64,000 bases of DNA from Mytilus trossulus (taxonomy: Eukaryota), in assembly GCF_036588685.1 (NCBI RefSeq), contig NW_026963317.1:2666001-2730000 (forward strand), written 5' to 3'. A program made the position numbers and the translations under genes. The first letter of the stretch is position 1. Every line of letters starts with the position of its first letter. The notes under the pieces are model-generated. The model worked only from the letters and a program-made list of their open reading frames with translations. It had not been told where the DNA came from and searched no databases. This document shows positions 6,607 through 51,688 of the stretch, piece by piece.

Positions 6607-9600
6607 TTAACAAACACAAGATGAAATGTCCGTTCTGTACTCCCAACTGTTCCCCCAAAATCCAGTGCACAAAAATCCACCAGGACCTTTCAGACCATAC
6701 TCTGGACCAGTCACTACATAATCTGGCAGCAGGTTAGAAAACTATAATAAAGAAAAAATCATCACAATACATTTAATCTGACAGAATTTGTATTCACATA
6801 ATAGCAAACTGGTTGTTAAAATGAAATGAAAAAAAATAAAAAAATTTGATCTTGATACATCAACTGGAGGCTCTAAAGAGCCTGTGTCACTCACGTGCAC
6901 CTTAGTCTATGTGCTGCAGTGCATATTAAACAAAGGACACTATATAACATTAAAGACATGACAAAATTCTCTGTTTTCACGACAGTGATTTGTTTGTAGA
7001 TCTTACTTTATGGAACATTCTTGCTGTTTACAGTTATCTCTTAGTATCTATAATGAACTTGGTCCAGTTGTTTCAGAGGAAAAGATTTTTGTAAAAGATT
7101 ACAAAAATTTACAGAAATTGTGGAAAATTGACTTTAAAAGGCAACCAGATGCTCCGCAGGGCGTAGCTTTATACGACCGCAGAGGTTGAACCCTGAACGG
7201 TTGGGGCAAGTATGGACACAACATTCAAGCTGGATTCCGCTCTAAATTTGGATTGTGATTAAATAGTTGACACAGCATAGGTTTCTGACACAGAATGAAT
7301 GTATTCAAATGAACTTAAAATTTTTGTTTTCTCTTAGAGCAATTCACTATGCTGTTGAATATTAATCCTCTCAAAAAAATGTTTGAAGAAATTTTCTTTT
7401 TATTTATGAAATTTCAAATGAGAAAAATTGAACCCAATTTTTTATTCACATCCCCCTTTCCCTTATTCCAAAACTAATTTCAATTAAAATATTCTTATGG
7501 AGTTTGCAACAAATACTACTCATTTAAATACATCATAAAATATTAAGATGTAAAAAAACTGCTTGTTATCACTGAATGGTAAAGATTATTTAAATTTATC
7601 AGTTGGTAGTAAAAAGTGAATATACATTGTATATTGTATATATATAACAAAGATTTAAGTTGATTCTGGACAAAGAAAGATAACTCCAATTAAAAAAAAT
7701 TCTTGCAGATATTTCTTGCTTACTATACTGGACAAAGAAAGATAACTCTTAATTAAAAAAAAAATTGCTATTTCACAATATTGTGAAATTAAATATTTCT
7801 TGCCATTGCACAATACTGTGCAATTGAAAAGACTTGCTATTGCACAATACTTAATATAATAATTTTAGATCCTGATTTGGACCAACTTGAAAACTGGGCC
7901 CATAATCAAAAATCTAAGTACATGTTTAGATTCAGCATATCAAAGAGGCCCAAGAATTTAATTTTTGTTAAAATCAAACTTAGTTTAATTTTGGACCCTT
8001 TGCACTTTAATTTAGACCAATTTTAAAACTGGGCCAAAGATTAAGAATCTACATACACAGTTAGATTTGGCATATCAAAGAACCCCAATTATTCAATTTT
8101 TGATGAAATCAAACAATGTTTAATTTTGGACCTCGATTTGGGCCAACTTGAAAACTGGGCCAATAATCAAAAATCTAAGTACATTTTTAGATTCAGCATA
8201 TCAAAGAACCACAAGGTTTCAATTTTTGTTAAAATCAAACTAAGTTTAATTTTGGACCCTTTGGACCTTAATGTAGACCAATTTGAAAACGGGACCAAAA
8301 ATTAAGAATCTACATACACAGTTAGATTCGGCATATTAAAGAACCCCAATTATTCAATTTTGATGAAATCAAACAAAGTTTAATTTTGGACCCTTTGGGC
8401 CCCTTTTTCCTTAACTGTTGGGACCAAAACTCCCAAAATCAATACCAACCTTCCTTTTATAGTCATAAACCTTATGTTTAAATTTCATAGATTTCTATTT
8501 ACTTATACTAACGCTATGGTGCGAAAACCAAGAAAAATGCTTATTTGGGTCCCTTTTTGGCCCCTAATTCCTAAACTGTTGGGACCGAAACTCCCAAAAT
8601 CAATACCAACCTTCCTTTTGTAGTCATAAACATTGTGTTTAAATTTCATTGATTTCTATTCACTTTAACTAAAGTTATTGTGCGAAAACCAAGAATAATG
8701 CTTATTTGGGCCCTTTTTTGGCCCCTAATTCCTAAACTGTTGAAACCAAAACTCCCAAAATCAATCCTAACCTTTCTTTTGTGGTCATAAACCTTGTGTC
8801 AAAATTTCATAGATTTCTATTAACTTAAACTAAAGTTATAGTGCGAAAACCAAGAAAATGCTTATTTGGGCCCTTTTTGGCCCTTAATTCCTAAAATGTT
8901 GGGACCAAAACTCCCAAAATCAATACCAGCCTTCCTTTTATGGTCATAAACCTTGTGTTAAAATTTCATAGATTTCTATTCACTTTTACTAAAGTTAGAG
9001 TGCGAAAACTAAAAGTATTCGGACGACGACGACGACGACGACGACGACGCCAATGTGATAGCAATATACGACGAAAATTTTTTCAAAATTTGCGGTCGTA
9101 TAATAATTCCTGAAGGGGTCAACTGACCATTTTGATCATGTGACTTATTAGTAGAGCTTACTTTGATGAACATTTTAGCTGTTTACAATTTATCTCTATC
9201 TATTAAAATAGTCAAGAAAATAACCCAAAACTGTAAATTTCCTTGAATAACCAATTCAGGGGCAGTGACCCAGGGATCGAATTTAAGCTTTTTTGTGTAC
9301 TGGCCAGCCGGACCAGTGGCCTAAAAATCTACTTGTCCGGCTCCAAATCTACTGGTCCTGCAAAAAATGACATTCCTGTAGATTTTTTGTGCATTCTGAT
9401 TGTTCATGAGTAAGTACAGAATCTAACTTAAAATTTGAAGATCCCATTACAAAAATACATTTCTTTTATAGGTCTGTCACTGCAAATTTTTCATATACAA
9501 TTCATGACATTGTGATGCAGTATATAATTTAACCATTCAAGATCTGTTTCCCAGGATTTTTAATATTAGTGTTTCCTATGTGTCAATTTTATAAACTTTA

Positions 9601-12600
9601 TTCTGATCTTCCTTTTGAATGTCCCTTGTTTTATTTTTTTTGTTTCAAAGATATAAGCTGAACTGCATTTAACTCCACATGTTCTATATTTAGCCATGGC
9701 GGCAATCTTGGTTGATGGGCAGGGTAATAAGATACATTTTGTAAAGCAAGATACCCCAAGGATGATTTAGGCCAAGTTTGGTTTAATATGGCTGAGTAGT
9801 TTCAGAGGAGAAGATTTTTGGAAAAGTTCATGGACGACAATGACTACAGACACCAAGTGACGACAAAAGCTCACTTGGCCCTTCTGGGGCAGGTGTGCTA
9901 AAAAGTACTTTTTTTCGTGCTTTTACCCTCCTTTTGCATTTGCAACAGTGAATTCAGCAAGAAACCTTCTTTTTATAAGGTTGATTAAGGCATAGATAAA
10001 GTTTGGTGTTGTTTCTTTTTGCAAAATATTCTACAACTGGAAACAAAGCCAGTATTTTATGTAACTAGTACTACACCAAGTAAAATAATGATTAAGTCAT
10101 TATGCATTGTTTATCTCCCAAGGCTGTAAAATTCTCTAATTGCTCCTAAGCATGATACTCATACATGACCTAAAAATTGGCAAGACAAAGTATTTTTATT
10201 TATAGGAATACTTACAGGTGACCTTGTCATTGGTGGTATAGTGGGAGTGGCCAGTGATATGTCATCATATAGTCCTTCATAAGAGTTTGACATCAATATC
10301 AATACAATATAATGATACTTACAGGTGACCTTGTCATAGGTGGTATAGTGGGCGTGGCCAGTGATATGACATCATATAGTCCTTCATAAGAGTTTGACAT
10401 CAATATCAATACAATATAATGATACTTACAGGTGACCTTGTCATAGGTGGTATAGTGGGCGTGGCCAGTGATATGACATCATATAGTCCTTCATAAGAGT
10501 TTGACATCAATATCAATACAATATAATGATACTTACAGGTGACCTTGTCATAGGTGGTATAGTGGGCGTGGCCAGTGATATGTCATCATATAGTCCTTCA
10601 TAAGAGTTTGACATCAAAATCAATACAATATAATGATACTTACAGGTGACCTTGTCATAGGTGGTATAGTGGGCGTGGCCAGTGATATGACATCATATAG
10701 TCCTTCATAAGAGTTTGACATCAATATCAATACAATATAATGATACTTACAGGTGACCTTGTCATAGGTGGTATAGTGGGCGTGGCCAGTGATATGTCAT
10801 CATATAGTCCTTCATAAGAGTTTGACATCAATATCAATACAATATAATGATACTTACAGGTGACCTTGTCATAGGTGATATAGTGGGAGTGGCCAGTGAT
10901 ATGACATCATATAGTCCTTCATAAGAGTTTGACATCAATATCAATACAATATAATGATACTTACAGGTGACCTTGTCATAGGTGGTATAGTGGGCGTGGC
11001 CAGTGATATGACATCATATAGTCCTTCATAAGAGTTTGACATCAACATCAATACAATATAATGATACTTACAGGTGACCTTGTCATTGGTGGTATAGTGG
11101 GCGTGGCCAGTGATATGTCATCACATAGTCCTTCATAAGAGTTTGACATCAATATCAATACAATATAATGATACTTACAGGTGACCTTGTCATAGGTGAT
11201 ATAGTGGGAGTGGCCAGTGATATGACATCATATAGTCCTTCATAAGAGTTTGACATCAATATCAATACAATATAATGATACTTACAGGTGACCTTGTCAT
11301 AGGTGGTATAGTGGGCGTGGCCAGTGATATGTCATCATATAGTCCTTCATAATAGTTTGACATCAATATCAATACAATATAATGATACTTACAGGTGACC
11401 TTGTCATAGGTGGTATAGTGGGCGTGGCCAGTGATATGACATCATATAGTCCTTCATAAGAGTTTGACATCAATATCAATACAATATAATGATACTTACA
11501 GGTGACCTTGTCATAGGTGATATAGTGGGCGTGGCCAGTGATATGACATCACATAGTCCTTCATAAGAGTTTGACATCAATATCAATACAATATTATGAT
11601 ACTTACAGGTGACCTTGTCATAGGTGGTATAGTGGGCGTGGCCAGTGATATGTCATCATATAGTCCTTCATAAGAGTTTGACATCAATATCAATACAGTA
11701 TAATGATACTTACAGGTGACCTTGTCATAGGTGGTATAATGGGCGTGGCCAGTGATATGTCATCATATAGTCCTTCATAAGAGTTTGACATCAATATCAA
11801 TACAATATAATGATACTTACAGGTGACCTTGTCATAGGTGGTATAATGGGCGTGGCCAGTGATATGTCATCATATAGTCCTTCATAAGAGTTTGACATCA
11901 ATATCAATACAATATAATGATACTTACAGGTGACCTTGTCATAGGTGGTATAGTGGGAGTGGCCAGTGATATGACATCATATAGTCCTTCATAAGAGTTT
12001 GACATCAATATCAATACAATATAATGATACTTACAGGTGACCTTGTCATAGGTGGTATAGTGGGCGTTGCCAGTGATATGACATCATACAATCCTTCATA
12101 AGAGTTTGACATCAATATCAATGCTAGATTGTCTTTACTGTTCGGTGCTAATGTAAGAAGGCCTGATCGAGGATGACTGAATTTACATTTTGATAATGAA
12201 AATGAAGAATCTGCAAAAAACAAAAAGAAATATATTATAAGAAAAAACAATTGTCTAGTGATATTTCAAGCTCTGTTAACTGGACAATATATGCATTTTT
12301 TTCTTACTATACACTTCAGCTTATCAGGAATATTTAAAAAAAAAATAAATATAGACATTAAAAAGGATCAAAAACATTATTGCTCTACTTTTATGCAGGT
12401 GTTTACATAATTTTTTTAAAGGGAGAAATCTTAATTAATATGATCCAAACAAGGACTATAAGATAGAGCTCCTCCTAAGTTTCTAGTCCTTTAATTTTAA
12501 ACTCTTAGCTTTGAGCATTCCTGATTAAGGTTAACCTATACATGACGCTCTTTAAAGCATGTATTAGTCCCAAAGAATTTGTTTGTAAATCTTGCATAAA

Positions 12601-15600
12601 TTGTTATTTTTGTTTTTTACAATTTACTCCATCTATCATTGTTCTTAAATTATTGGCAAAACATGGAAACATTTAATACTGTTAATTTAGGACAATAATT
12701 GTTTTAGCAGTTATCCAATGGTTTCAGTCAACCACTATTTAGAAAGGAAATCATGCATGTTTTCTTATAAAATCATCATTTAAGGATAATAACTCAAAAA
12801 GGGAGACAATTCTGAAATAAATGGAAACATTGGAAGGCATGTTGATTGTTTTCAATCATTTTTTCCCCTTAATCTCTTAATTTTTTTTTTCAATACCTAT
12901 ATCTATCTATAAAAATTTGGTGATGGAACAAAATGTAACAAACAAGATACTCAAATGAACAGGCAAGCCCAGCAGTTTGTTAAGTTAACGCATGACAAAG
13001 ATTACAGAGCAGGGCAAATAGGTATAAAGTGATGGCAAAAGCTCACATGTACTTTGTGTTCCCTATATCACCTAGAAGTCAAGTAGAAGTAGTCTGTAGA
13101 AGTAATTTATAATATAAGTATATAATAATATAATAATATATCTATTTAGAAATATATCTATTTATAATCTATTTTATAATATAAGTATACAATAATATAT
13201 CTATTTAGAAATATATCTATTTATAATCTATTTTATAATATATAAATATTGGTAGATTTTATTCATACATTATTTAATGTATTCTAAAACCTTTTGTCAT
13301 ATTTAATTTGAACATACCATGAAAATTTCAGCAAAAAATGTAATCTAAGCTGTTAAAACCGTTGTCATGTTAGAGTGCATGATAAAAACTCATTAACCAT
13401 ATCCATTACATATTAATTGACAGCTGGTTTTCTTCAAGTCAGGCAATGGTACTATTACTAACACTATATAATAGAGTCACACCACAGAAACAATCAGTCT
13501 GTTCTTAGTCATCATCCAGCATCCAGATCAAGATGAGTTACTACACCACAGTATTGACACTATTGTTCTTGGCAGAAATAGTTATGGGATCATGTGACAC
13601 AAAATTAGGTAAATAAAATTATATTTTTTTTTACTTTATAAAATAATTAAAATAAAGAATTATTGAAATGAAATCAAAATATTACGCATACATGTTGGAT
13701 TATGAACTTGCAAAAAGAATGTTATCAAAGATACTCAAATAAAACATTTCATAATGCAATATTTATTTTCAGGGTGTTCGCTTCTTAGTGATCTCCTCGA
13801 AATGGCAATGAAACATAAGAGTCCAGGTAAGTTTCATATAATTACATTAGATGTATGTTTCATTATAATTAATGATTCTGATTGGCTACTCTGATATCTT
13901 GCCATATCTTTCAGCAACTTCATTACACAATAAAATTTTATCATTCATGATGACACTAGGTTCCACAATGAAGTGCACAGGTAAATTAAATTAAAACTTG
14001 ATAAAAAACATGTTTTCATGATCATAGCTAAAAAAGTAATTATAAGTATTGAATGCTTCTTTTTGTAACTTCATAGGGTTGCAAAAGCTTTGACCGTGTG
14101 CACATTTTTAGAATGAAATGCAGAAGCGCTTCATACAAAATGTACTTCGGTCAACGCTTTTACACCCCAATGAAGTTACAAAAAGAAGCATTAAATTCTT
14201 CAATATATTTACTTTTAGGCTAAAACTGTGTTATTTGTACATTCAAAATGCTGCAAAACATAAACTTTGGTTTTATATTTAATCTATACATATATTTTCT
14301 TCTTTTATTTAACAAGTTTACAAAAAATGTAGTAAAACCTTTTTACCACAACAAACATGAATAACTGTATACTGGTGAATTCAATCATTATAACTGCATT
14401 AAAGGAGATGTTATGTATTTGTCAATGAGAGCCAATGACAGAATAAACTGAGTTGACTGCATTGAAAAAAAAGTAACTTGATGATTGATAACATTTCCCT
14501 CATTCTGAGGCTGGTACAAATATCATGCGAACATTTACAATAAAATCACATTCTATGTTTCATTACACCTTTTATTTCATGTCCTTCCATGTATATTTTC
14601 AGTTTTTACACTAGCAATCATAATCCATTAAAGTTGACTTATAAAAAATGAAACACTATAAGGCTTACAAACAGCAATTTTGATAGCTTTCAAGTTTCGT
14701 ACATACATTTTATTTTTATGTTCTCATACTTTCATTTTAGATAAAGGCTGTCAGTGTCTGAGTAGAACCACAATCCCAGCCTTTCAATCAATGCTGACTC
14801 AACCACAAACCCCTGGAGACAAAGGTGTTATCAAGTTTGATAAAGTTGTCACCAATATACGAAAAGGCTATAACCCAACCACTGGTATTTTTACCGCTCC
14901 AATTGCTGGAGTTTATCAGTTTTCTTATACTGTAATGACTCAGCCTGGAAAGCATCTGATTGTCTACCTTTCTCATAATAATATAAAGCAACAAACCACA
15001 TGGCTGAAAGGTACTAGTCATGAGACTGGAACAGCAATTACTATTTTAAACCTGAAGAAAGGGGATCAAGTTGATGTAAAGGTCCTGGGCAGGGACACTA
15101 TTAACAGTAATAGTGCTGACATACTTAGCTGGTTTTCTGGCTATCTCATAGCACAATAAAATATAATATACCTTGTTTTTTTCCATTTTAACTAGACTCT
15201 TTGAAGAGTCTGAGTCTATGACAGATATTACTTTAACATCTTATCGATTGCATTACAATAACTTTTCTAATTTAATGTAATCGATTACATTACAATTACA
15301 CCTAATTTCAAATGTAATTGTTTACATTAGATATTTTCTTTAGATAACTAATGAATACATTATATACTGTGGTATAGACTCTATGTACAACAATAAACAT
15401 CAGTCAACCACTATTTAGAAAGAAAATTATTCATGTATTTCTTATTAAATCATCATTTAAGGATGATAACTCAAAAATGGAGTCAATTGATTATTATTCT
15501 GAAATAACTTGAAACATTGGAACAGCATGCTGATCCTTTTGATCGAATTTCTTTTTTTCTCTTCCATCTCTCATAATTTTTTAACATAACCTGTAAACCA

Positions 15601-18600
15601 AAAATGAATCCTGACACAATCTTTTCTATATCTATCTATGACAGTTTGGTGATGGAACAAAATGTAACAAACTAGAAAGCAAAATTGAGATGATGAGGCC
15701 CAGCAGCTTCAGAGCAGACAAATTTTAATAAAGCAGGGGGAGATTACAGAGAAGAAAAGATATAAACAGATGAAAAGTGATGGCAAAAACTCATATGGAC
15801 CTTTTGATTCATATAATCTTTAAAGTCAAGGGTTCAATCAACTAAAAATAGTTAAGTGACACTTTCATTTTGTGATTCATCTGGGTATTTTTGTCTCTGG
15901 GCTGCTGTCACATTGACATAGAATCCACATCTAAATAAAATGTATTCCAGCATCATTTATCAAGGACAAAACTTGTATACTTCCAAAGTAAGTTCTGTAA
16001 TCATACTAAAAACAAGAATGTGTCCCCAGTACACGAATGCCCCGCTCGCACTATCATTTTCCATGTTCAGTGGACCGTGACATTGGGGTAAAAACTCTAA
16101 TTTGGCATTAAAATTAAAAAGATCATATCATAGGGAACATGTGTACCAAGTTTGAAGTCGATTGGACTTCAACTTCATCAAAAACTACCTTGACCAAAAA
16201 CTTTAACCTGAAGAGGGACAGACGGACGGACGAATGCACGGACGAACAGACGAATGGACGCACAGACCAGAAAATATAATGCCCCCCCTACTATCGTAGA
16301 TGGGGCATAAAAATCAGCAGAAAGTAATGTAATCTCAACTGTTAATATTGCTGCCATGTTATAGTGCATGACAGAAACTCATTAACCATATCCATTTCAT
16401 ATTAGTTGATAGCTTGTTTTCATCAAGTCAGGCGATTCTACCATTACTAACACTATATAAAAGAGTCACATCACAGAAACAATCAGTCTGTTCTTAGTCA
16501 CCATCAGCATCCAGATTAAGATGAGTTACTACACCACAGTATTGACACTGTTGTTCTTGGCAGAAATAGTTATGGGATCATGTGACACAAAATTAGGTAA
16601 ATAAATTTATATTTTTTTTTGCTTTATAAAATAATGAAAATATAGAATTATTGAAATGAAATCAAAATATTAAGCAGACATGTTGAATTATAAACTTGCA
16701 AAAAGACATTATCAAAGATACTCAAATCAAACATTTTATAATGCATTATTTATTTTCAGAGTGTTCACTTCTTGGTGATCTCCTAGAAATGGCAATGAAA
16801 CAAAAAAGTCCAGGTTAGTTCATATATAATTACTTTTAGGCTAAAAATGTGGTATTTGAAGTCAAAATGCTGCAAATGCGTAAACTTTGGTTTTATAATT
16901 AATCTTTACATAATTTATAACATAATTTATTCTTTTATATTACAAGTTTACAAAAAATGTAGTTTAAACCTTTTTACCACGACAAACATGAATAATTTGT
17001 TGCTGCTGAAAAATGAATTAAAGGAGATGTTATGTTTTTTGTCAATGAGATAGCAACCCAAATGACAAAAAAAACCTGAGTAGACTGCATTGAAAAAACA
17101 GTAACTTGATGATTTATTAAATTAAATTTCATTTTGAGGCTGGAACAATTATAATGTGAATGTTTACAATAAAATCCCTTTCATTACACATTTTATTTGC
17201 TATATTCTATGTACATTCTTTACAATAGCAATTTGAATATTTTTCAAGTTTTATTCATAACTGTTATTTTCATTTTCATTTTCTCTTTCTTACATTTTAG
17301 ATAAAGGCTGTCAGTGTCTGAGTAGAACCACAATCCCAGCCTTTCAATCAATGCTGACTCAACCACAAACCCCTGGAGACAAAGGTGTTATCAAGTTTGA
17401 TAAAGTTGTCACCAATACACAAAAAGGCTATAACCCAACTACTGGTATTTTTACTGCACCTGTAGCTGGAGTTTATCAGTTTTCTTATACAGTAATGACT
17501 CTAAAAGGAAAACATCTGGTTGTCTACCTTTCTCATAATAATATCAGGCAACAAACTACATGGCTGAAAGGTTCTAGTTATGAGACTGGAACAGCAAATA
17601 TTATATTAAATCTGAAGAAAGGAGACCAAGTTGCAGTGAAGTCTGAAGGCAGTTATACCATTCACACTGATAAAAATTACCCATATAGCTGGTTTTCTGG
17701 CTATCTCATAGCATAATAAAAGATATTATACTGCTACTTTTCTTTTTTATTATCACAAGATGCTAGAAAGAACCTTTGTCGCTCACCTAGGTCTATTTAC
17801 ATCTTCAACAATGGATACTCTTCAACCTCGTCCACAAGGAAAATAAACAGCTGTGCCATGAGCGCATGATACGCCCGACGTCTGGTACGGAAGTTTAATG
17901 CAATAATCATAAATAGTTTCTGAGAAAAATTTAAGCAATAACCATATATTGTTTTTGAGATAAGGCGGGAAATGTGAAACCCCCCCCTTTTTTTTTTTTT
18001 TTTACAAAAAACTAAATATCACTAAAATAAAATTTTGAAACATCACCAAAAAGTATACAGATCTTAAGATTGATATAACAAAGAAGTGTGTAGGTGTAAT
18101 GCCACCATTGATTTTCCCCTATTAGTCTTTATTAAATTTGCACTTTTCAAAAAAATGTGCAGAATTTATCTTTGTTTCAAATAAAGAAATACTTGGCATG
18201 AGTAAAGTTTTATCCTGTCCAGTACTATAGAAAAAAATTCACATAACATTTCATTGCATATAAGAAAATAACCATCATTGGAAGTTAACCAATCAAATGT
18301 CTCCCCTTATTTTATCTGTGTACAAGGTTTAGTCACCACGTAACCTCAAGATTACAAAATTTTCTATAGAAATCCCAAATAAAAAATAATGGTGTTTTGA
18401 AATACCCAAGACATATATGTTTATGACACAGAAATGTTTTTACTGCAATAAAATGTAGGATTAATTACCAACAACTGTCAAATTCAAGGGAATATATTTT
18501 TAGACCTACTTTCGTATACAACAGTATGTGACGTACCATGATTTGGTTGTATTACATCTAAAGAAGACATTATTGTTCAATAAACTGAATGTAATTTTTT

Positions 18601-21600
18601 CCTTTGTTATACTGGTTATTTCAAGCATTTCTGTCAAGTTTTGACATAATCAGTTCAATAGTTTGAGAAAAAATCTAGTATAATGAAAGACGACATCTAC
18701 AGCGATTCAAGCAAAATTCTTCAATAAATCCAAACCAAGCCGCATCAAGATAGAATAAAGGGTGGACCAATAAATGATCAAATATCTATCTTATCAGCCT
18801 ACAAACAGTTAAATATGAAACACAAGATGATTTTAGGAAGATAATTACCACTAATGTGTTTTGGAGACTCGATCCACTCAGAATATTTCATTTTTTGTAA
18901 TATTTCACTTAAATAGCAAGAAATTTTAACACATGAGATTACTCACAAGGTCAAAGGTGTATGTACAGCTTCCCATATTAAAGACATTATTGTTCAATAA
19001 ACTGAATATAACTTTTTTCCTTTGTTATACTGGTTATTTCAAGCATTTCTGTCAAGTTTTGACATAACCAGTTCAATAGTTTGAGAAAAATCTAGTATAA
19101 TGAAAGACGACATCTACAGCGATTCAATCAAAATTTCTTCGATAAATCCAAACCAAGCCGCATCAAGATAGAATAAAGGGTGGACCAATAAATGATCAAA
19201 TATCTATCTTATCAGCCTACAAACAGTTAAATATGAAACACAAGATGATTTTAGGAAGATAAATACCACTAATATGTTTTGGAGACTCGATCCACTGAAA
19301 ATATTTCATTTTTTGTAATATTTCACTTAAATAGCAAGAAATTTTAACACATGAGATTACTCACAAGGTCAAAGGTGCATGTACAGCTTCCCATATTAGG
19401 TGTAATACCACCATTGATTTTCCCCTATTAGTCTTTGTTAAATTTGCACTTTTCAAAAAAATGTGCAGAATTTATCTTTGTTTCAAATAAAGAAATAATT
19501 GGCATGAGTAAAGTTTTATCCTGTCCAGTACTATAAAAAAAATTCACATAACATTTCATTGCATATAAGAAAATAACCATCATTGGAAGTTAACCAATCA
19601 AATGTCTCCCCTTATTTTATCTGTGTACAAGGTTAAGTCACCACGTAACCTCAAGATTACAAAATTTTCTATAGAAATCCGAAATAAAAAATAATGGTGT
19701 TTTGAAATACCCAAGACATATGTTTATGACACAGAAATGTTTTTACTGCAATAAAATGTAGGATTAATTACCTACAACTGTCAAATTCAAGGGAATATTT
19801 TTTAGACCTACTTTCGTATACAACCGGATGTGACGTACCATGATTTGGTGGTATAACACCTAAAGAAGACATTATTGTTCAATAAACTGAATGCAACTTT
19901 TTTCCTTTGTTATAATGGTTATTTCGAGCATTTCTGTCAAGTTTTGACATAATCAGTTCAATAGTTTGAGAAAAATCTAGTATAATGAAAGACGACATCT
20001 ACAGCGATTCAAGCAAAATTTCTTCAATAAATCCAAACCAAGCCGCATCAAGATAGAATAAAGGGTGGACCAATGAATGATCAAATATCTATCTTATCAG
20101 CCTACAAACAGTTAAATATGATACACAAGATGATTTTAGGAAGATAAATACCACTAACGGACCTCTTTGTCTTCTTTATAAGGTCTCTTTTGGTCTATTT
20201 ATACCTCATATTTCCTCAAATTTCAAATTTTCAGGCCAATAAATAAAAATAATGGGGTAACTTTCACTCATTTATGGTAGAAATGTTATAAGAAATGAGT
20301 AATTGAAGCATTTTAGCAGAATGAACAATCCATATAAAAGTTTACTGTCTCTGCCGCGTTCCAGACAGCGACATAAAAGGCTTCTCTGTTAGTGAATAAT
20401 TTGTTGTTACAGCTTTAAAAATAATTTCATGTACTTATAACTATATATTTATTTAAGTATTTCCAAGGATAATGTTCTATCATAGCAGAATATAAGAAAT
20501 AAGGAGAAAAAGCCCCCCCCCCCCCCCAAAAAAAAAAAAAAAAAAAAAAAAAAAGACTATCAACTTAATATTCATGGTAGAGTCCTATTTCAAGACAATT
20601 TTCTCATAAAATGTGTTTTGGAGACTCGATCCACTGAGAATATTTCATTTTTTGTAATATTTCACTTAAATAGCAAGAAATTTTAACAGATTACTCATAA
20701 GGTCAAAGGTGCATGTACGGCTTCCCACATTAGGTGTAATACCACCATTGATTTTCCCCTATTAGTCTTTGTTAAATTTGCACTTTTCAAAAAAAATGTG
20801 CAGAATTTATCTTTGTTTCAAATAAAGAAATAATTGGCATGAGTAAAGTTTATCCTGTCCAGTAGTCTAGAAAAAAAATTCACATAACATTTCATTGCAT
20901 ATAAGAAAATAACCATCATTGGAAGTTAACCAATCAAATGTCTCCCCTTATTTTATCTGTGTACAAGGTTTAGTCACCATGTAACCTCAAGATTACAAAA
21001 TTTTCTATAGAAATCCCAAATAAAAAATAATGGTGTTTTGAAATACCCAAGACATATATGTTTATGACACAGAAATGTTTTTACTGCAATAAAATGTAGG
21101 ATTAATTACCAACAACTGTCAAATTCAAGGGAATATATTTTTAGACCTACTTTCGTATACAACAGTATGTGACGTACCATGATTTGGTGGTATTACATCT
21201 AAAGAAGACATTATTGTTCAATAAACTGAATGTAATTTTTTCCTTTGTTATACTGGTTATTTCAAGCATTTCTGTCAAGTTTTGACATAATCAGTTCAAT
21301 AGTTTGAGAAATATCTAGTATAATGAAAAACGACATCTACAGTGATTCAAGCAAAATTTCTTCAATAAATCCAAACCAAGCCGCATCAAGATAGAATAAA
21401 GGGTGGACCAATAAATGATCAAATATCTATCTTATCAGCCTACAAACAGTTTAATATGATACACAAGATGATTTTAGGAAGATAATTACCACTAATGTGT
21501 TTTGGAGACTCGATCCACTCAGAATATTTCATTTTTTGTAATATTTCACTTAAATAGCAAGAAATTTTAACACATCAGATTACTCACACGGTCAAAGGTG

Positions 21601-23158
21601 CATGTACAGCTTCCCATATTAAAGACATTATTGTTCAATAAACTGAATGTAACTTTTTTCCTTTGTTATACTGGTTATTTCAAGCATTTCTGTCAAGTTT
21701 TGACATAACCAGTTCAATAGTTTGAGAAAAATCTAGTATAATGAAAGACGACATCTACAGCGATTCAATCAAAATTTCTTCGATAAATCCAAACCAAGCC
21801 GCATCAAGATAGAATAAAGGGTGGACCAATAAATGATCAAATATCTATCTTATCAGCCTACAAACAGTTAAATATGAAACACAAGATGATTTTAGGAAGA
21901 TAAATACCACTAATATGTTTTGGAGACTCGATCCACTGAAAATATTTCATTTTTTGTAATATTTCACTTAAATAGCAAGAAATTTTAACACATGAGATTA
22001 CTCACAAGGTCAAAGGTGCATGTACAGCTTCCCATATTAGGTGTAATACCACCATTGATTTTCCCCTATTAGTCTTTGTTAAATTTGCACTTTTCAAAAA
22101 AATGTGCAGAATTTATCTTTGTTTCAAATAAAGAAATAATTGGCATGAGTAAAGTTTTATCCTGTCCAGTACTATAAAAAAAATTCACATAACATTTCAT
22201 TGCATATAAGAAAATAACCATCATTGGAAGTTAACCAATCAAATGTCTCCCCTTATTTTATCTGTGTACAAGGTTAAGTCACCACGTAACCTCAAGATTA
22301 CAAAATTTTCTATAGAAATCCGAAATAAAAAATAATGGTGTTTTGAAATACCCAAGACATATGTTTATGACACAGAAATGTTTTTACTGCAATAAAATGT
22401 AGGATTAATTACCTACAACTGTCAAATTCAAGGGAATATTTTTTAGACCTACTTTCGTATACAACCGGATGTGACGTACCATGATTTGGTGGTATAACAC
22501 CTAAAGAAGACATTATTGTTCAATAAACTGAATGTAACTTTTTTCCTTTGTTATAATGGTTATTTCGAGCATTTCTGTCAAGTTTTGACATAATCAGTTC
22601 AATAGTTTGAGAAAAATCTAGTATAATGAAAGACGACATCTACAGCGATTCAAGCAAAATTTCTTCAATAAATCCAAACCAAGCCGCATCAAGATAGAAT
22701 AAAGGGTGGACCAATGAATGATCAAATATCTATCTTATCAGCCTACAAACAGTTAAATATGATACACAAGATGATTTTAGGAAGATAAATACCACTAACG
22801 GACCTCTTTGTCTTCTTTATAAGGTCTCTTTTGGTCTATTTATACCTCATATTTCCTCAAATTTCAAATTTTCAGGCCAATAAATAAAAATAATGGGGTA
22901 ACTTTCACTCATTTATGGTAGAAATGTTATAAGAAATGAGTAATTGAAGCATTTTAGCAGAATGAACAATCCATATAAAAGTTTACTGTCTCTGTCGCGT
23001 TCTAGACAGCGACATAAAAGGCTTCTCTGTTAGTGAATAATTTGTTGTTACAGCTTTAAAAATAATTTCATGTACTTATAACTATATATTTATTTAAGTA
23101 TTTCCAAGGATAATGTTCTATCATAGCAGAATATAAGAAATAAGGAGAAAAAGCCCCC

Positions 23159-23189
<31 letters not shown>

Positions 23190-26100
23190 AAAAAAAAAAA
23201 AAAAAGACTATCAACTTAATATTCATGGTAGAGTCCTATTTCAAGACAATTTTCTCATAAAATGTGTTTTGGAGACTCGATCCACTGAGAATATTTCATT
23301 TTTTGTAATATTTCACTTAAATAGCAAGAAATTTTAACAGATTACTCATAAGGTCAAAGGTGCATGTACGGCTTCCCACATTAGGTGTAATACCACCATT
23401 GATTTTCCCCTATTAGTCTTTGTTAAATTTGCACTTTTCAAAAAAAATGTGCAGAATTTATCTTTGTTTCAAATAAAGAAATAATTGGCATGAGTAAAGT
23501 TTATCCTGTCCAGTAGTCTAGAAAAAAAATTCACATAACATTTCATTGCATATAAGAAAATAACCATCATTGGAAGTTAACCAATCAAATGTCTCCCCTT
23601 ATTTTATCTGTGTACAAGGTTTAGTCACCATGTAACCTCAAGATTACAAAATTTTCTATAGAAATCCCAAATAAAAAATAATGGTGTTTTGAAATACCCA
23701 AGACATATATGTTTATGACACAGAAATGTTTTTACTGCAATAAAATGTAGGATTAATTACCAACAACTGTCAAATTCAAGGGAATATATTTTTAGACCTA
23801 CTTTCGTATACAACAGTATGTGACGTACCATGATTTGGTGGTATTACATCTAAAGAAGACATTATTGTTCAATAAACTGAATGTAATTTTTTCCTTTGTT
23901 ATACTGGTTATTTCAAGCATTTCTGTCAAGTTTTGACATAATCAGTTCAATAGTTTGAGAAATATCTAGTATAATGAAAAACGACATCTACAGTGATTCA
24001 AGCAAAATTTCTTCAATAAATCCAAACCAAGCCGCATCAAGATAGAATAAAGGGTGGACCAATAAATGATCAAATATCTATCTTATCAGCCTACAAACAG
24101 TTTAATATGATACACAAGATGATTTTAGGAAGATAATTACCACTAATGTGTTTTGGAGACTCGATCCACTCAGAATATTTCATTTTTTGTAATATTTCAC
24201 TTAAATAGCAAGAAATTTTAACACATCAGATTACTCACACGGTCAAAGGTGCATGTACAGCTTCCCATATTAAAGACATTATTGTTCAATAAACTGAATG
24301 TAACTTTTTTCCTTTGTTATACTGGTTATTTCAAGCATTTCTGTCAAGTTTTGACATAACCAGTTCAATAGTTTGAGAAAAATCTAGTATAATGAAAGAC
24401 GACATCTACAGCGATTCAATCAAAATTTCTTCGATAAATCCAAACCAAGCCGCATCAAGATAGAATAAAGGGTGGACCAATAAATGATCAAATATCTATC
24501 TTATCAGCCTACAAACAGTTAAATATGAAACACAAGATGATTTTAGGAAGATAAATACTACTAATGTGTTTTGGAGACTCGATCCACTGAGAATATTTCA
24601 TTTTTTGTAATATTTCACTTAAATAGCAAGAAATTTTAACACATGAGATTACTCACAAGGTCAAAGGTGCATGTACAGCTTCCCATATTAGGTGTAATAC
24701 CACCATTGATTTTCCCCTATTAGTCTTTGTTAAATTTGCACTTTTCAAAAAAATGTGCAGAACTTATCTTTGTTTCAAATAAAGAAATAATTGGCATGAG
24801 TAAAGTTTTATCCTGTCCAGTACTATAAAAAAAATTCACATAACATTTCATTGCATATAAGAAAATAACCATCATTGGAAGTTAAGCAATCAAATGTCTC
24901 CCCTTATTTTATCTGTGTACAAGGTTTAGTCACCACGTAACCTCAAGATTACAAAATTTTCTTTAGAAATCCTAAATAAAAAATAATGGTGTTTTGAAAT
25001 ACCCAAGACATATGTTTATGACACAGAAATGTTTTTACTGCAATAAAATGTCGGATTTATTACCTACAACTGTCAAATTCAAGGGAATATTTTTTAGACC
25101 TACTTTCGTATACAACCGGATGAGACGTACCATGATTTGGTGGTATTACACCTAAAGAAGACATTATTGTTCAATAAACTGAATGTAACTTTTTTCCTTT
25201 GTTATACTGGTTATTTCAAGCATTTCTGTCAAGTTTTGACATAATCAGTTCAATAGTTTGAGAAAAATCTAGTATAATGAAAGACGACATCTACAGCGAT
25301 TCGAGCAGAATTTCTTCGATAAATCCAAACCAAGCCACATCAAGATAGAATAAAGGGTGGACCAATAAATGATCAAATATCTATCTTATCAGCCTACAAA
25401 CAGTTAAATATGATACACAAGATGATTTTAGGAAGATAAATACCACTAATGGACCTCTTTGTCTTCTTTATAAGGTCTGTTTTGGTCTATTTATACCTCA
25501 TATTTCCTCAAATTTCAACTTTTCAGGCCAATAAATAAAAATAATGAGGTAACTTTCACTCATTTATGGTAGAAATGTTATAAGAAATAAGTAATTGAAG
25601 CATTTTAGCAGAATGAAGAATCCATATAAAAGTTTACTGTCTCCGCCACGTTCCAGACAGCGACATAAAAGGCTTCTCTTTTAGTGAATAATTTGTTGTT
25701 ACAGCATTAAAAATAATTTCATGTACTTATAACTATATATTTATTTAAGTATTTCCAAGGATAATGTTCTATCATAGCAGAATATAAGAAATAATATATT
25801 TATTTACGTCAGGCGTATGAATTTTCCAGTTCAGGTAGCGGGCTAATTGTAATAACAATAGAGTAAGAAGTTCCGTTAGTATTTAAAGTCGTGCGTGCAC
25901 GAGAAAAGTTATCGACAAGGGTGGAGACCATCTGACGAGTAGTGTATTTGTGTATAGGAAGATTAATCTTCAGTATAACAGTTCATGCCTTATATATATG
26001 TAGAGTTCATATTTTAATTATGCGCATTTCTTTTGTAGATCGTATGTTAATTGAATGAACTGATGCCATTGTGTATTATTTGAATGAACTGAAACCATAG

Positions 26101-29100
26101 TGGTGAAAACTATTTGAGGACATTTGTCTTGTGTTTTATTTGTTTAATAAATTATGAAGATGGTCACCGCACCTGACAGTCCCCCCCCCCCCCCCAAAAA
26201 AAAAAAAAAAAAAAAGAAAAAAAAAGACTATCAACTGAATATTCATAGTAGAGTCCTATTTCAAGACAATTTACTCATAAAATGTGTTTTGGAGACTAGA
26301 TCCATTGAGAATATTTCATTTTTTTGTAATATTTCACTTAAATAGCAAGAAATTTTAACACATGAGATTACTCACAAGGTCAAAGGTGCATGTACAGCTT
26401 CCCATATTAGGTGTAATACCACCATTGATTTTCCCCTATTATTGTCTTTGTTAAATTTGCACTTTTCAAAAAAATGTGCAGAATTTATCTTTGTTTCAAA
26501 TAAAGAAATAATTGGCATGAGTAAAGTTTTATCCTGTCCAGTACTATAGAAAAAAATTCACATAACATTTCATTGCATATAAGAAAATAACCATCATTGG
26601 AAGTTAACAAATCAAATGTCTCCCCTTATTTTATCTGTGTACAAGGTTTAGTCACCAAGTAACCTCAAGATTACAAAACTTTCTATAGAATTCCCAAATA
26701 AAAAATAATGGTGTTTTGAAATACCCAAGACATATGTTTATGACACAGAAATGTTTTTACTGCAATAAAATGTCGGATTAATTACTTACAACTGTCAAAT
26801 TCAAGGGAATATTTTTTTAGACCTACTTTCGTATACAACAGTATGTGACGTACCATGATTTGGTGGTATTACACCTGTAAAGTTTTAAGCAATAACCATA
26901 AATTGTTTTTGAGATACGGCGCGACATGTAAAAAAAAACTCCCCCTTTTTTTACAAAATACTCAATAACTCAAAAATAAAATTTTGAATCATCACCAAAA
27001 AGTATACAGATCTTAAGATTGATATAACAAAGAAGTCTGTAAAGTTTTAAGCAATAACCATAAATCATTTTTGAGATATGGCGCGACATGTAAAAAAAAC
27101 CTCCCCCTTTTTTACAAATACTCAATAACTCAAAAATAAAATTTTGAATCATCACCAAAAAGTATGCAGATCTTAAGATTAATATAACTAAGAAGTGTGT
27201 AAAGTTTTAAGCAATAATCAAAAATCGTTTTTGAGATACAGTGCAACATGTAAAAGAAAAAAAAAAACCTGTTTTAGTTACAAAGTGCCATAACTCAAAA
27301 AGTTTTAATTTTATTTTCACTAAAAAGTATACAGATCATTTGACCATCATAAGAAACAACTATATTAAGTTTCATTAAATTTGGATAAGTCATTCTCAAG
27401 TTACGGTNNNNNNNNNNNNNNNNNNNNNNNNNNNNNNNNNNNNNNNNNNNNNNNNNNNNNNNNNNNNNNNNNNNNNNNNNNNNNNNNNNNNNNNNNNNNN
27501 NNNNNNNNNNNNNNNNNNNNNNNNNNNNNNNNNNNNNNNNNNNNNNNNNNNNNNNNNTTTGTATACCATAATACGTCCCGTCAAAATTTTGACAGGCGTA
27601 TAAAAATTGTGACACATTTTTTTTTTTTTATCTTGTAAGGCACTTTTTTTTTTACAGTTAGTTCCTCTCTATCTTCTTTAGCTTTTGTCCAAAACACAAA
27701 AAATAAAAGGTTAAAAAAGTCATTTGAAGGCAATTATTCCTAGAAAGATTCAACAAAATTAGACTCATTTGTAGATCTTGTCTAACTGATAATTTTTGCT
27801 ATCTAAAGTGTCTTTTTATCTATTATAAGGTTCAGGAAAATGGACAAAACACTAGAAATAGATAAACATCATCATTATAGAGCAATAACTCTAATAAAGA
27901 TAAAGAGTCTTTCTGCCATTACCTATTTATAGTAGGTTTTGCTGAATATTTTTGCTAATTCAAGTTTCTATCTATCCACTGGTATTATAGTTTTAGATAA
28001 CACCTAACAGACAAAAACACAAAGAAAATGGTAAAAATCAGTATAAAAGGGTAAGAACTCCAATAAGGAAGCATCAGACATTTTAAGCAATTGTGACATC
28101 AATATCAATGTGAGATTGTCTTTACCATTTGGTGCTAATGTAAGAAGACCTGATCGAGGACCACTAAATGTACATTTTGATACTGAAAATGAAGAATCTG
28201 CAAAAAACAAGAAATATGTTATAAGAAAATATAATCATCTAGTAATATTTTTAGGATCATTTATTGGGGAATATATGTAACAGTTTTTTTTCACTATTTC
28301 ATGCCTGCCTGCCAACTGTCACTATTTGCGGGGGATTTCCCCCATGGAGGCTCCCAAATTGAAATTTTGAAAGAGCAATTTTGTCCACAATTTTAAACAA
28401 AACAATTAATTTTACAATGACTTTAGGCTTACAAAAGTATGAAGAAGCCAAACAATAAAATTAAAATGTATTTAAAGGCCCCCTTGAAGTTTTTTTAGGA
28501 CTATGACAGCCATCTTGCACGTAAAACCCCCATGGGCATTTTGAAAAGTTGGCAGGTATGCAGTGAGTAATTACCTAAAAAAAAGGTGACCAAAAACATT
28601 GTTTCTCTACTTATATGCAGGTGTTTACAATTTTTGTTTTTATGGAAGAAATCAGTCCACACACATATTCCTCAACAATCAAGGACTATGAGATAGATTT
28701 CTGCACAAGTTTCAGGCCCATACATACTTCACTTTTAAACTATTTGTATCTGAGCAATCTTGAGGAAGAATAATCCAAACAAGAGGCTCCTAAAGGCCTG
28801 AAAGGCACACTTACACATTTTTATGCAGGTCTTGCATTAATGATATTTTTTGTTGTCACAGTTTACACCATCTTTTCAAAATTAATTGGCAAACAACATG
28901 ATTATGTGAATACTGTCAAAAAAGAAAATAATAACTTTAGCAGTAGTCCAATTATTTCAGTCAACCACTTTTTTGAAAGAAAATTATTCATGTATTCCTT
29001 AAAAAATTCATCATTTAAGGATAATAACTCAAAAATGGAGTCAATTGATTATTCTGAAATAACTTCAAAACATTGGAAGGCATGCTGATCATTATGTTTG

Positions 29101-32100
29101 ATTTCTCTTTTTCTCTTCCATCTCTCATAATTTTTTAATATACCTGTAAACATAAAATGAATCCTGACACAACCTTTTCTATATCTATATCTATAACAGT
29201 TTGGTGATGGAAAAAATGTGACAAATTAGATACTCTAAAGAACATACAAGTTAAGTTTACATGATTAGGACCATCAGTTCAAAGTAGAAGAATTTACGGT
29301 AGGTAATGCATGGCAAAGATAACAGAGCATTGCAAACAGACATAAAGTGATGGCAAAACCTCATATGGACCTTTCGATCAATATGAGTTCAATCAACTAG
29401 TTTGTAGAAGATATTGGTCTATTTTATTCATTTGTAAAGCAATGTATTCCAGGACCTTTTGTCAAGGACAAAATTTGTATATACATCTAAAGTAAGTTCT
29501 TTAATCATACATAAAAATTTCAGCAGGAAGTAATGTATTCTAGGCCGTCATGTTATATAGCATGATAAACACTCATTAACCATATCCATTTCATATGAAT
29601 TGACAGCTTGTTTTCATCAAGTCAGGCAATTCTACCATTACTAACACTATATAAAAGAGTCATATCACATATATACAATCATTCTTGCCAAAGTCAGCAT
29701 TGATATCAAGATGAATTTCTACACCACAGTATTGACACTATTGTTATCTGCAGAGATAGTTATGGGGTCATGTGACACAAAATTAGGTAAATAAAATTAT
29801 TTTATTTTCAACTTTATAAAATAATAAAAATAAAGAATTATTGAAATGAAATTAAATTAAAATGAACTAATAACTGGCTAGAAGCTATTGTTTTGAAGAA
29901 ACTTTTTTGGCTTATAAGATAACAAACATATGTTTTCTTCTTATTTTGTTACATGCAATACAGTGGGTAAAAGATATTGCTTCAAATTATTTTTTTCAAA
30001 TTAAAAGAAAAAAAATCTTTTACTAGTAGTTGGTTCACTACAAGAGTAAGGGAAAATATTAAGCATACATGTTGAATTATGGAGTTGCAAAAAGAACATA
30101 TTAAATATACTTAAATCAAATATTTCATGATGCAATATTTATTTTCAGAGTGTTCACTTCTTGGTGATCTGCTTGAAATGTCAATGAAACAAAAAAGGCC
30201 AGGTTAGTTCATATTTGATTACTTTTATGCTTCTAATGGGTTTGCACAGTCAAAATGCTGCAAATGCATAAACTTTGATTTTATATAGACAAATACTAAA
30301 ATATTTTATTTGTTACAGTTTTCAGAGATGCAGTATAAAGAGAAGAACCATACATTTTCTCAAAATATATTATTTTTTACTTGGTTTGAAACAGGATAGA
30401 AATTTAAAAGCTTGATAATCAATTTCACTCCCTGTCAGATTTCCTCTAAATGCTTTGGTTTCAGAGTTATAAGCCAAAACCTATATTTTACCACAGTTCA
30501 ATCTTTAGCCATGACAGTCATCATGGTTCGTTGACCGGGTCACATTTCAAAGCTCGATACCCAAATGATGATTGTGGTCAAGTTTAGTTAAATTTGGCCG
30601 AGTAGTTTCAGAGGAGAAGATTTTTGTAAAAGTTAACGATGAAGCCTGATGCCAAGTGATGAGAAAAGCTCACTTGGCCCTTTGGGCTAGGTGAGCTAAA
30701 CATGACACACTACAAGGCTTATAAACAGCAATTTTAATAGTTTTCAAGTTTCCTACATTTTATTTTTATGTTTTCTTACTTTCATTTTAGATAAAGGCTG
30801 TCAGTGTTTGAGTAGAACCACAATCCCAGCCTTTCAATCAATGCTGACTAAAGCACAAACCCCTGGAAACAATGGTGCTATCAAATTTGACAAAGTTGTC
30901 ATCAATACACAAAAGGGCTATAACCCTACCACTGGTATTTTTACCACACCACTTGCTGGAATTTATCAGTTCTCTTATACAGTAATGAGTCTAAGTGGAA
31001 AACATCTGGTTGTCTACATTTCTCATAATAATGTCAAGCAACAAATGACATGGCTGAAAGGTTCTAGTTTTGAGACTGGAACAGCTAATAATATATTAAA
31101 TCTGAAGAAAGGAGACCAAGTTGCAGTGAAGTCCGAAGGCAGTTATACTATTCACAGTGATAGTACTAATCTGTACAGCTCATTTTCTGGCTATCTCATA
31201 GCAAAATAAAATATATAATACCATAAGTTTGGTGTTTTTCTTTTTCACTTAAACTAGAGGCTCTGGAAAGTCTGAGTTGCATTCCTAGGTCTATGACCGA
31301 GATGGAGTTGATTACTTTAAAATGTTATTGATTACATTACAATTACTATGGTACTTTAATGTAATCGATTACATTACAATTACATCTAATTCAAATGTAA
31401 TTGATAACTGCTACATTAGATTACTTTTTTTAATAGATAACTTTAAAATGATTACAATATATACTGTGGAATACTCTATGTACATCTTCAACAATGGACA
31501 CTCTAAAATATTGTGGTCAAGAATTGAATTAAATACAAAAATATTTGTTTTCATGATCTTCTTTTGATATTTTTTTCTGTATTAAGTTTCTTTCTAACTT
31601 CTTTACTTATTTTCGAAAACACAAAAAAAAAAAGGATGAAAATAAGATGTGGAGGAACAACACAAATGGTCCTGCTCGCAAAATTACAAAGACCAAAGCT
31701 AATAATAAATAAAATTAAAAAAATGTCACTTGAGCATTCCCGATTAAGGTTAACCCATACATGAAGCTCTTTAAAGCATAAATTACTCCCAAAGAATTTG
31801 TTTGTAAATCTTGCATAAATGATTATTTTTGTTTTTTTACAATTTACTCCATCTATCATTGTTTCTTAAATTATTGGCAAAACATGAAAACATTTAATAC
31901 TGTTAATTTAGGCCAATAATTGTTTTAGCAGTTATCCAATGGTTTCAGTCAACCACTATTTAGAAAGAAAATTATTCATGTTTTATTTATAAAATCATCA
32001 TTTAAGGATAATAACTCAAAAAGGGAGACAATTCTTAAGTAAATGGAAACATTGGAAGACATGTTGATTGATTTTAATCATTTTTTTCCCTTGATCTCTT

Positions 32101-35100
32101 TTTTTTTCAAAATCTGTTCATCTATACACAATTTGGTGATGGATCAAAATGTTACTAACAAGATACTCAAATGAACAGGCAAGCCCAGCAGTTTAATAAG
32201 TTAATGCATGACAAAAATTACAGAGCAGAGCAAATAGGTATAAAGTGATGGCAAAAGCTCACTTTTTGTTCCATATATCACATAGAAGTCAAGGGTTTAA
32301 TCAACTAGTCTGTAGAAGTTAATTTTGGTAGATTTTATTCATACATTATGTATAAATGTATTCTAAAAACTTTTGTCAAATTTAATTTGAACATTCCATG
32401 AAAATTTCAGCAAAAAATGAAATCTAAGCTTTTGAAACTGTTGTCATGTTAGAGTGCATGATAAAAACTCATTAACCATATCCATTACATATTAACTGAC
32501 AGCTGGTTTTCATTGTCAGGCAATTCTACCATTACTAATACTATATAAAATACTCGCATCACAGATACAATCTTTCTTGCCTAAGTCAGCATTGATATCA
32601 AGATGAATTTCTACACCACAGTATTGACACTATTGTTATCTGCAGAGATAGTTATGGGGTCATGTGACACAAAATTAGGTAAATACAATTATATTTATTT
32701 TTACTTTATAAAATAATACAAATATAGAATTATTGAAACGAGGCTAAAATGAACTAATAACTGGCTAAAAGCTATTGTTTTGAATAAAAATTTTTGGCTC
32801 ATAAGATAGCAAACATATGTTTTTCTTATTATGTAACATACAATACATTGGGTAAAAGTTATTGAGACAAAATGAGAGGAGAAAAATGATTTTAGTGCGT
32901 TCACTATAACAGGTAATGGAAACAATTTTAAGCATACATGTTAAATTATGAACTTGCAAAAAGACATTATCAAAGATACATAAATCAAACATTTTATGAT
33001 GCAATATTTATTTTCAGAGTGTTCTCTTCTTGGTGATCTTGTCGAAATGGCGTTGAAACATAAGAGTCCAGGTTAGATTCATATATAATTTATTTTTGGC
33101 TAAAAATGTGCTATTTGTGCAGTTAATATGCTGCAAATGCATAAACTTTTGGTTTTATAATTAATCTTTACATAATTTATGACAGAATTCATTCTTTCAT
33201 ATTACAAGTTTACACAATTGAAGTTTAATAAAATTGAGAAAGGAAATGGTGAATATGTCAAATCGACAACCACCTGACCATAGAGCAGACAACAGCCGAA
33301 GGCAACCAAAAACCTTTTTACCAAGACAAACATGAATAATTTGTTGCTGTTGAACAATGAATTAAAGGAGATGCCATGTTATTTGTCATTGAGACAGCAA
33401 CCCAAATGACAAAAAAACTGAGTTGACTGCATTGTAAAACAGTAACTTGATGATTTATTAAATATTTTTTATTTTGAGGCTGGTTCAAACATAATGTGAA
33501 TGTCTACAATAAAACCCCTTTCATTACACATTATTTTTGCTATCTTCTATGTACATTTTTTAAAATAGCAGTTTGAATATTTTTCAAGTTTTATTCATAA
33601 CTGTCATTTTCATTTTCATTTTCTCTTACTTTCATTTTAGATAAAGGCTGTCAGTGTCTGAGTAGAACCACAATCCCAGCCTTTCAATCAATGCTGACTA
33701 AAGCACAAACCCCTGGAAACAATGGTGTTATCAAATTTGACAAAGTTATCATCAATACACAAAAAGGCTATAACCCAACTACTGTTATTTTTACTGCCCC
33801 TGTTGCTGGAGTTTATCAGTTTTCTTATACAGTCATGAGTCTAAGTGGAAAGCATCTGATTGTCTACATTTCTCATAATAATATCAGGCAACAAACTACA
33901 TGGCTGAAAGGTTCTAGTTATGAGACTGGAACAGCCAATTTTATATTACATCTGAAGAAAGGAGACCAAGTTGCAGTAAAATCTGTAGACAATTATACTA
34001 TTCACACTGATAAAAATTATCCATTTAGCTTGTTTTCTGGCTATCTCATAGCATAATAAAAGATATTATACTACTAGTTTTCCTTTTCATTATCACAAGA
34101 TGCTAGAAAGAACCTTTGTCACTCACCTATGTCCATTTACATCTTGAACAATGGACATCTTCGACCTCGTCCACAAGGAAAAAATAAAAGGGACAACAAC
34201 TCATTTGAAGGCAATTATTCCTAGAAAGATTCAACAAAATTAGACTCATTTGTAGATCTTGTCTAACTGATATTTTTTCCTTGTTTTCAAAATTCCAATA
34301 GGGAACATACTTTATATAATTGTTTAAATAAACCAATTTTTCAAGACGTTTCGGCCAATGGCCTTCTTTAGTTCTTTATTTTTCCTCTCAACTACATGGC
34401 TGACATTACATTCAATCATTGATAAGATGTTTTAGCTAAATGTCCTTGGAAACGTCATGACGTCATAATACTTTAACGTCACAATAACATGACGTCACAA
34501 TACTTTAGCATGAATTAAAGTTAAATTTTATAAGTTTTGATCAATTAAAGTCATTCCTTTTTAACGTTAACTCCAAATGGTCTAATTGTATTAAGTTTTT
34601 GCATCCATTTTGCCTCAATATATCTCCTGTAATTTGATGATTTATCATAAATCTGTTGCAGAACCTGAACTGTGATGTCCTCTTTGCAATGATCCTCTTG
34701 GTTGAAATGTTCTGCCACAGCTGTTTCTCTATTATGTCTGATATCTGCAAGATGTTCTTTTATTCTTTCGTTGAGTGATCTTTCTGTAACTCCAACATAA
34801 ACATAGTGGTTACATTTTTCACAGTGAAGTCCATAAATAAGATTTACTAGTTGACATCCATGAATGTTCTATTTGAGGTTGAATGTTTTATCTCTGAGTA
34901 TAATTTTTTCTTCATTTCTTTCAATATCGCAAACTTCACATTCTTCTTTACATGTTTTGTTGTTGCTGTAGTTGGTACTTTTTTTGGTGATCTTATTTAG
35001 TTTTCCATGTACAATTATGTCTGCTAAGTTTCTATCTCTTCGATAAGCTACTAGTGGTGGTTCTGGAAATATTTCTTTCATCAAGTCACAGTTATGTAAA

Positions 35101-51433: not shown

Positions 51434-51688
51434 CTAAAGAATATAAAAAATAAACTTAAAAAGTTATTGCTTACAAAAATATATAGTGTAAGGATGGATT
51501 TTAATCTTTTTTCCAAAAGGGGAACACTCGCACCATTCAGATACAAAAGGCAAATTCATATCTGTAAATAAAACAAACGTATAGAACCAGGTTTTTAAAT
51601 GAATGCCTCGTGGTTTCTTTACTATATAATAATAAACAGTTTGGTTGATTTTGACAGCATAGACAACATTAAGGTTCACTGCCTTTAA

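Follow-up and report, generated by a model that had tools for sequence, protein, structure and literature searches.

How does a gene come to carry, at the very start of an intron, a long row of copies of its own exon end, each followed by a splice donor, and which of these donors does it use? The window (the whole 64,000-nt stretch of Mytilus trossulus DNA analysed here) raises this question at the penultimate coding exon of an uncharacterised hydrolase gene, a model of which we built by mapping the protein of LOC134709942 (P0001) onto the sequence. The features on which the argument turns are the following.

6607..54310, minus strand: host gene, 15 coding exons and 996 aa, an uncharacterised alpha/beta-hydrolase (S9/ARB_06907-like) and orthologue of Mytilus trossulus LOC134709942 (protein mapping, Pfam).
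12035..12210, minus strand: exon 14, 176 nt, penultimate, its last 88 nt being the exonic part of unit 1; RNA-like contigs from runs X7, X11 and X14 cover the whole exon and join it to exon 13 and exon 15.
10208..12122, minus strand: tandem array of 107 bp in 17.9 copies (88-nt exon end, donor GTAAGTAT and 11-nt spacer), supported by TRF, the donor positions, junction contigs in DNA runs X1, X2 and X10 and junction cover in X6.
12027..12034, minus strand: authentic first donor of intron 14, used in RNA-like contigs (those of X7, X11 and X14 pass from 12035 into exon 15).
10208..11927, minus strand: 17 reiterated pseudo-donors (11927, 11820 ... 10215, from the donor positions), the last exiting into unique intron, an exit also found as a loose end in X1.
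12011..12013, minus strand: in-frame TGA reached when the first donor is read through, lying 83 nt upstream of the junction of donor 2.
6607..6741, minus strand: exon 15, the last coding exon, 44 aa and stop, conserved across animals (44/44 identical to P0001; homologous C-termini in most of 57 proteins among those listed).

The coding exons of the model run from 54310 down to 6607, every intron is GT-AG, and 954 of the 996 residues are identical to P0001. The long open frame at 49501-50886 (97% identity to LOC134709942) has relatives in molluscs, echinoderms, cnidarians and others (70 matches among 1684 candidates), and Pfam places Abhydrolase_1 and Esterase matches above cut-off at residues ~510-560 of P0001; scanning the exon-3 and exon-14 frames alone against Pfam gave no match.

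An earlier reading of the letters alone (referred to hereafter as the first-pass annotation) had proposed 18 units of 107 bp, each built from the last 88 nt of exon 14 and a donor stretch, and both the array and its composition are borne out. TRF reports a period of 107 over 10208-12122 with 97% matches and no indels; the 18 donors start at 12034, 11927 and so on to 10215, with all 17 spacings exactly 107, and comparison of the units resolves them into 88 nt of exon, 8 nt of donor and 11 nt of spacer. The units lie head-to-tail from the start of intron 14, occupying 1827 of its 5293 nt, such that the first unit spans the exon-intron boundary of a spliced gene (as placed by the gene model and by spliced contigs ending at 12035). 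The most distal unit was rightly said to run into unique intron, which follows directly after the donor of the 18th unit (the repeat ends at 10208), although this donor sits at 10215 and not, as first given, at 10211. The description of 18 near-identical strong donors stands as regards identity, there being no difference in any of them from -3 to +8 and the same exon end ahead of each; 17 of the 18 are extra copies. As regards strength, judged by complementarity to the U1 5′ end and match to the consensus, it stands on the intron side (+1 to +8 fully complementary) and fails at positions -2 and -1; the resulting match, at 9 of 11 positions, is the joint best among the 14 donors of the host gene.

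Units this alike (units 2-17 are 95-100% identical, mean 97.8%) raise the suspicion that the assembler multiplied a single exon end, and the window does contain one gap, 15 kb away (27408-27557). We regard such an artefact as extremely improbable: units 2-17 fall into 12 distinct types, and the junction between units recurs in sequencing runs. Eight of the 20 listed runs (X1, X2, X6, X7, X10, X11, X14 and X15) were examined, all as assembled contigs. DNA run X1 holds a unit-junction contig at a depth of 262 versus 18.4 for the flank contig, the flank agreeing with the window without differences; X1 may be the assembly's own sample, hence possibly not independent. DNA run X2, from another study and under another organism label, has a junction contig (137 long, one period plus 30) at a depth of 57.7 versus 5.64 for the flank, and X6 shows a cover of 30 over the junction bin. 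A contig of X10, which bears a fourth label, runs from the flank through exon 14 and across the same junction at a depth of 5.8 (record 1). Junction-to-flank depth is then ~14 in X1, ~10 in X2 and ~1 in X10, contig depth being no copy number. Since contigs across the junction turn up in DNA runs from several studies, the array is no assembly artefact, which settles the concern that the first-pass annotation had itself voiced; it is genuine and present in more than one animal.

The X10 contig carries 15 differences and a 2-base insertion relative to the window, and so represents an allele diverged by ~6%. The presence of the same junction in this allele implies either an old duplication or one that moved between lineages; neutral persistence allows this without predicting it. 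Elsewhere in X10 the exon end has a depth of 18.6, close to the sum of two upstream alleles (9.4 and 10.3), so that these two show no amplification; the depth of the junction contig corresponds to a single allele. X10 suggests unamplified and short alleles, and array copy number probably varies between alleles, from none to many. X1 also contains a diverged exon 14 end (record 2, covering 12023-12104, with nine differences in 82 nt and a depth of 26.6), followed by a donor and then by non-window sequence; this may be another allele, or a paralogous fragment from elsewhere.

Donor choice was read from four RNA-like runs, the "RNA" label being a tool's guess and the contigs having depths of 2.9-6.4, with the further consideration that nonsense-mediated decay (NMD) would hide later-donor products. 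Exon 14 is joined directly to exon 15 in three of the four (X7, X11 and X14, by one contig each, entering from exon 13 and exiting at 12035); in the fourth, X15, the contig ends inside exon 14, at 12051. None of the four yielded a contig over the array junction, from animals that may or may not carry the array and as contigs that drop rare forms, and none of the four contig sets covers 11990-12034, where a read-through or later-donor product is expected, which is no proof of absence. Exon 14 of X7 shows no difference from that of the window, including at three letters private to unit 1; since 2 of the 30 exon-13 letters shown do differ, the two are not the same haplotype throughout. First-donor use in array carriers is likely. 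RNA structure masking the later donors was considered and rejected, as exon and first units fold worse than 100 of 100 shuffles (z = +3.0).

The choice of donor matters to the protein in the manner that the first-pass annotation had set out and the gene model confirms. A protein of 996 aa results when the first donor is used; a transcript spliced at any later one runs into the stop at 12013-12011 and encodes 959 aa ending in SPVSIIILY, with the 44 exon-15 residues lost and seven new residues gained. The stop lies between 83 nt (donor 2) and 1795 nt (donor 18) before the last junction. In vertebrates NMD acts on stops located over ~50 nt ahead of the last junction and, by that rule, these distances would invite NMD. 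The array might on this basis be a leaky by-product, neutral in origin, with donors 2 and 3 used at a low rate to give transcripts with a premature stop (959 aa, or NMD) and with long alleles behaving as mild hypomorphs. Such a leak would suit pseudo-donors that equal the authentic donor over -3 to +8 and a stop no less than 83 nt ahead of the last junction, and is described for CBS and 6-16 (PMC1557585) and for ABCA7 (PMC5954066). We nonetheless consider it unlikely, given that the junction is missing from the contigs of all four RNA-like runs, that use of donor 2 would stretch exon 14 from 176 to 283 nt, and that the precedents nearest in unit size, LMNB2 and PDGF, reportedly use the first donor only (PMC1557585).

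Two further roles for the units were tried and discarded. A coding repeat or a set of extra exons is at odds with a unit length of 107, not a multiple of 3, and with read-through that stops at once; as extra exons, moreover, the units offer three AG sites each with only 47-53% pyrimidines upstream.

The variation among units informs on both the history of the array and any constraint upon it. Units 2-18 carry 11 distinct variants, nine in the exon-derived part, two in the spacer and none in the donor. Three of the nine are synonymous and six are not, as against 27% synonymous expected at random (P = 0.44); a donor free of variants has a chance probability of 0.43 (counting 8 nt) or 0.30 (11 nt), a weak test with 11 variants. 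With so few variants an untouched donor is to be expected, and hence is no sign of the donors being kept; donor invariance at chance level and a neutral variant spectrum together give no signal of selection keeping the donors, at the low power that 11 variants afford. Inner variants are common to scattered units (one, at unit position 41, to eight units). Unit 1 has three letters absent from every other unit, all of them synonymous differences from the array majority and two within one leucine codon. The array letters at 12068, 12089 and 12091 are those of the coding allele in X11, X14 and X15, and the array variants at 12050 and 12065 (synonymous) are also present in exon copies of X11 and X10. 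On these comparisons of sequence, the simplest reading would be an array founded on one common allele, with later crossing-over between alleles replacing its first unit and, probably, its last.

We searched all 15 exons against the window and found copies of exon 14 and exon 12 only, which adds three features.

38550..39363, minus strand: second, older array with a ~120-bp unit (last ~89 nt of exon 12, donor and ~30 nt of intron) in six degenerate or partial copies, 83-95% identical to exon 12.
39364..39492, minus strand: exon 12, source of the older array (gene model and exon search).
28094..28217, minus strand: copy of the exon 14 acceptor and the first ~104 nt of exon 14, 89% identical, in intron 13 and 16 kb upstream, with matching contigs in X1 and X2; a mirror case, in that the acceptor is duplicated.

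The six exon-12-end copies make up most of the 971 nt of intron 12. Their donors are intact at 39103, 38983 and 38839, changed from GT to AT at 38723 and diverged at 38603, and one copy is cut; the intron 12 array is older and decaying, with one donor lost. A stretch of 103 nt splits one of its copies and matches 34313-34416, in inverted orientation, at 97% identity. Both donor arrays include 88-90 nt of exon, a shared extent that may be chance (n = 2). The stranded acceptor copy ends at a 158-nt repeat, and RNA-like contigs use the authentic exon 14 acceptor sequence.

The first-pass annotation had gone on to interpret the intron 14 array as a decoy-donor or U1-binding device that tunes output through NMD or intron retention. 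As a structure kept by selection for this purpose it would account for 18 of 18 donors being intact, for a junction common to several samples and a diverged allele, and for a design that is present twice in the host gene. On the other side, intact donors are expected by chance (P 0.30-0.43), alleles without the amplification appear to exist, and the older intron 12 array shows decay, including the loss of a donor. The alternative product is likewise not seen in the RNA-like contigs, three of four runs having the direct exon 14-15 join. The proposal is thus unsupported, and we hold such a selected device to be very improbable.

We consider it probable that the array is a near-neutral exon-intron boundary minisatellite, tolerated since splicing uses the first donor. 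Its founding step would have been a single duplication, in tandem, of the final 88 bases of exon 14 and the start of intron 14, creating the junction; unequal crossing-over or slippage could have expanded this to 18 copies. Recombination between alleles would have reshuffled the array ends, because the array consensus is a common coding allele, with unit 1 corresponding to a different one. Duplications across a donor would be prone to survive, in that the first copy leaves exon and donor whole and the remainder is harmless if the first donor wins; the same survival would also explain the older intron 12 array. A survivor bias of this kind would operate in a region rich in duplications, with arrays decaying over time. 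In carriers, the first donor would dominate and the copies would be removed with the intron (compare human F7).

The mussel array is an exon-intron boundary minisatellite, a class already described in human and lancelet genes. The class is defined by a first monomer lying across an exon-intron boundary (PMC1557585). LMNB2 (10-15 copies of 100 bp) and PDGF intron 4 (16-18 copies of 81 bp) resemble the mussel array in their boundary-spanning first monomer, long unit and similar copy number; these are human genes in which the authentic donor is reported as the sole one used (PMC1557585), whereas the mussel gene has two arrays, an older and a younger. The 37-bp VNTR of human F7 intron 7 similarly presents an authentic donor and then identical pseudo-donors, of which F7 uses only the most upstream; its unit contains just four exon bases in 5-9 copies (versus 88 exon nt and 18 copies in the mussel), and the first-donor rule there derives from minigenes (50 constructs; PMC1557585). 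Human CBS intron 13 has a 31-bp VNTR whose unit consists largely of exon end, followed by the opening bases of the intron, c.1444_1467+7(16_21), with 18 copies, the mussel number, as the commonest allele in the table (PMC2630376). The CBS unit is shorter, and in CBS, as in interferon-induced 6-16 (IFI6), the next two pseudo-sites are also used (PMC1557585), a use not seen in the mussel RNA-like contigs. In human ABCA7 intron 18 each 25-bp unit begins with a donor and retention of one unit gives a premature stop; the unit is without exon sequence, longer arrays go with lower expression, and NMD shows no length effect, the length effects on expression and exon skipping documented there having no counterpart in the mussel evidence (PMC5954066).

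The invertebrate likeness is to the lancelet "mirages" of Adh3 and the globins BflGb6 and BflGb9, tandem copies of 5′ or 3′ exon-intron boundaries with units of up to 150-160 bp, unstable lengths, edge units that are distinct and left out of homogenisation, and apparently undisturbed splicing (PMC3087553). These belong to a cephalochordate and have fewer globin copies (3-6 in BflGb6), as opposed to the bivalve array described here (PMC3087553). First-donor preference has been shown in mammalian cells, not in molluscs, and a search of the open-access literature found no mussel report of such an array.

The window thus extends to a mussel a class known from human and lancelet genes. The exon share of the unit is unusually long (88 of 107 nt), and the gene carries an older array alongside a younger one, a pair that shows a likely life cycle of birth, expansion and decay. 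There seem to be alleles with no, few and many copies, so that the locus would offer a natural test of whether the first-donor rule extends to molluscs. Boundary arrays can, in addition, mislead gene annotation and read mapping. The importance of the locus is modest, and would be greater only if copy number altered expression. One could picture a splice-donor VNTR, polymorphic among mussel lineages and serving as a dosage dial, with long alleles spliced from later donors and cleared by NMD, and with sequence swaps between array and exon feeding new exon-end variants into the protein; we think this distinctly unlikely. Were it true, the pair of arrays in this gene would suggest that exon-end duplication recurs in bivalves.

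The 11-nt spacer bears on how the junction arose. Allowing one edit, the opening 10 letters of the spacer agree with exon sequence near the start of the unit, a likeness equalled by only 99 of 20,000 random intronic 10-mers (a post hoc test), such that the resemblance on which the first-pass annotation had remarked is upheld. The template switching proposed from it is less secure: a second contig of X10 (record 2) has the donor, then the first seven bases of the spacer (with at most one difference), then unique distal intron, and the window's own distal intron shares four of those seven bases in register. The likeness to the exon fits a templated insertion, yet such an insertion is doubtful, and the spacer may be ordinary intron of the founder allele with four bases added by slippage at a short shared motif. 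Record 2 could instead be a recombinant exit from an array.

Several other features lie in the introns of the host gene and around it. Antisense within the 26-kb intron 13 are four similar C1q-domain frames on the plus strand (14662-15159, 17261-17716, 30706-31209 and 33601-34056), which sit in duplicated cassettes 74-92% alike; Pfam C1q is confirmed for the first frame. A 2.65-kb unit is repeated in tandem about three times over 18091-26876; the copies are 97-99% identical, every one contains a 418-bp double repeat as well as long runs of A or C, and the assembly gap follows. A 2-kb element that contains tandem repeats of 135 bp and 161 bp and has a GAC microsatellite at its end is present twice, with 92% identity, at 7143-9125 (intron 14) and 45762-47750 (intron 5); judged by its likeness, it is probably a non-autonomous mobile element. 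Reverse-transcriptase-like frames are found on the minus strand at 667-2100, which has no Pfam match, and at 34551-37535, which has a weak RVT_1 match below cut-off and whose upstream-downstream layout looks Penelope-like. Divergent from the host gene, a multi-exon neighbour on the plus strand spans 57515-63448, with a Pfam Acyltransferase match at 59838-60152.
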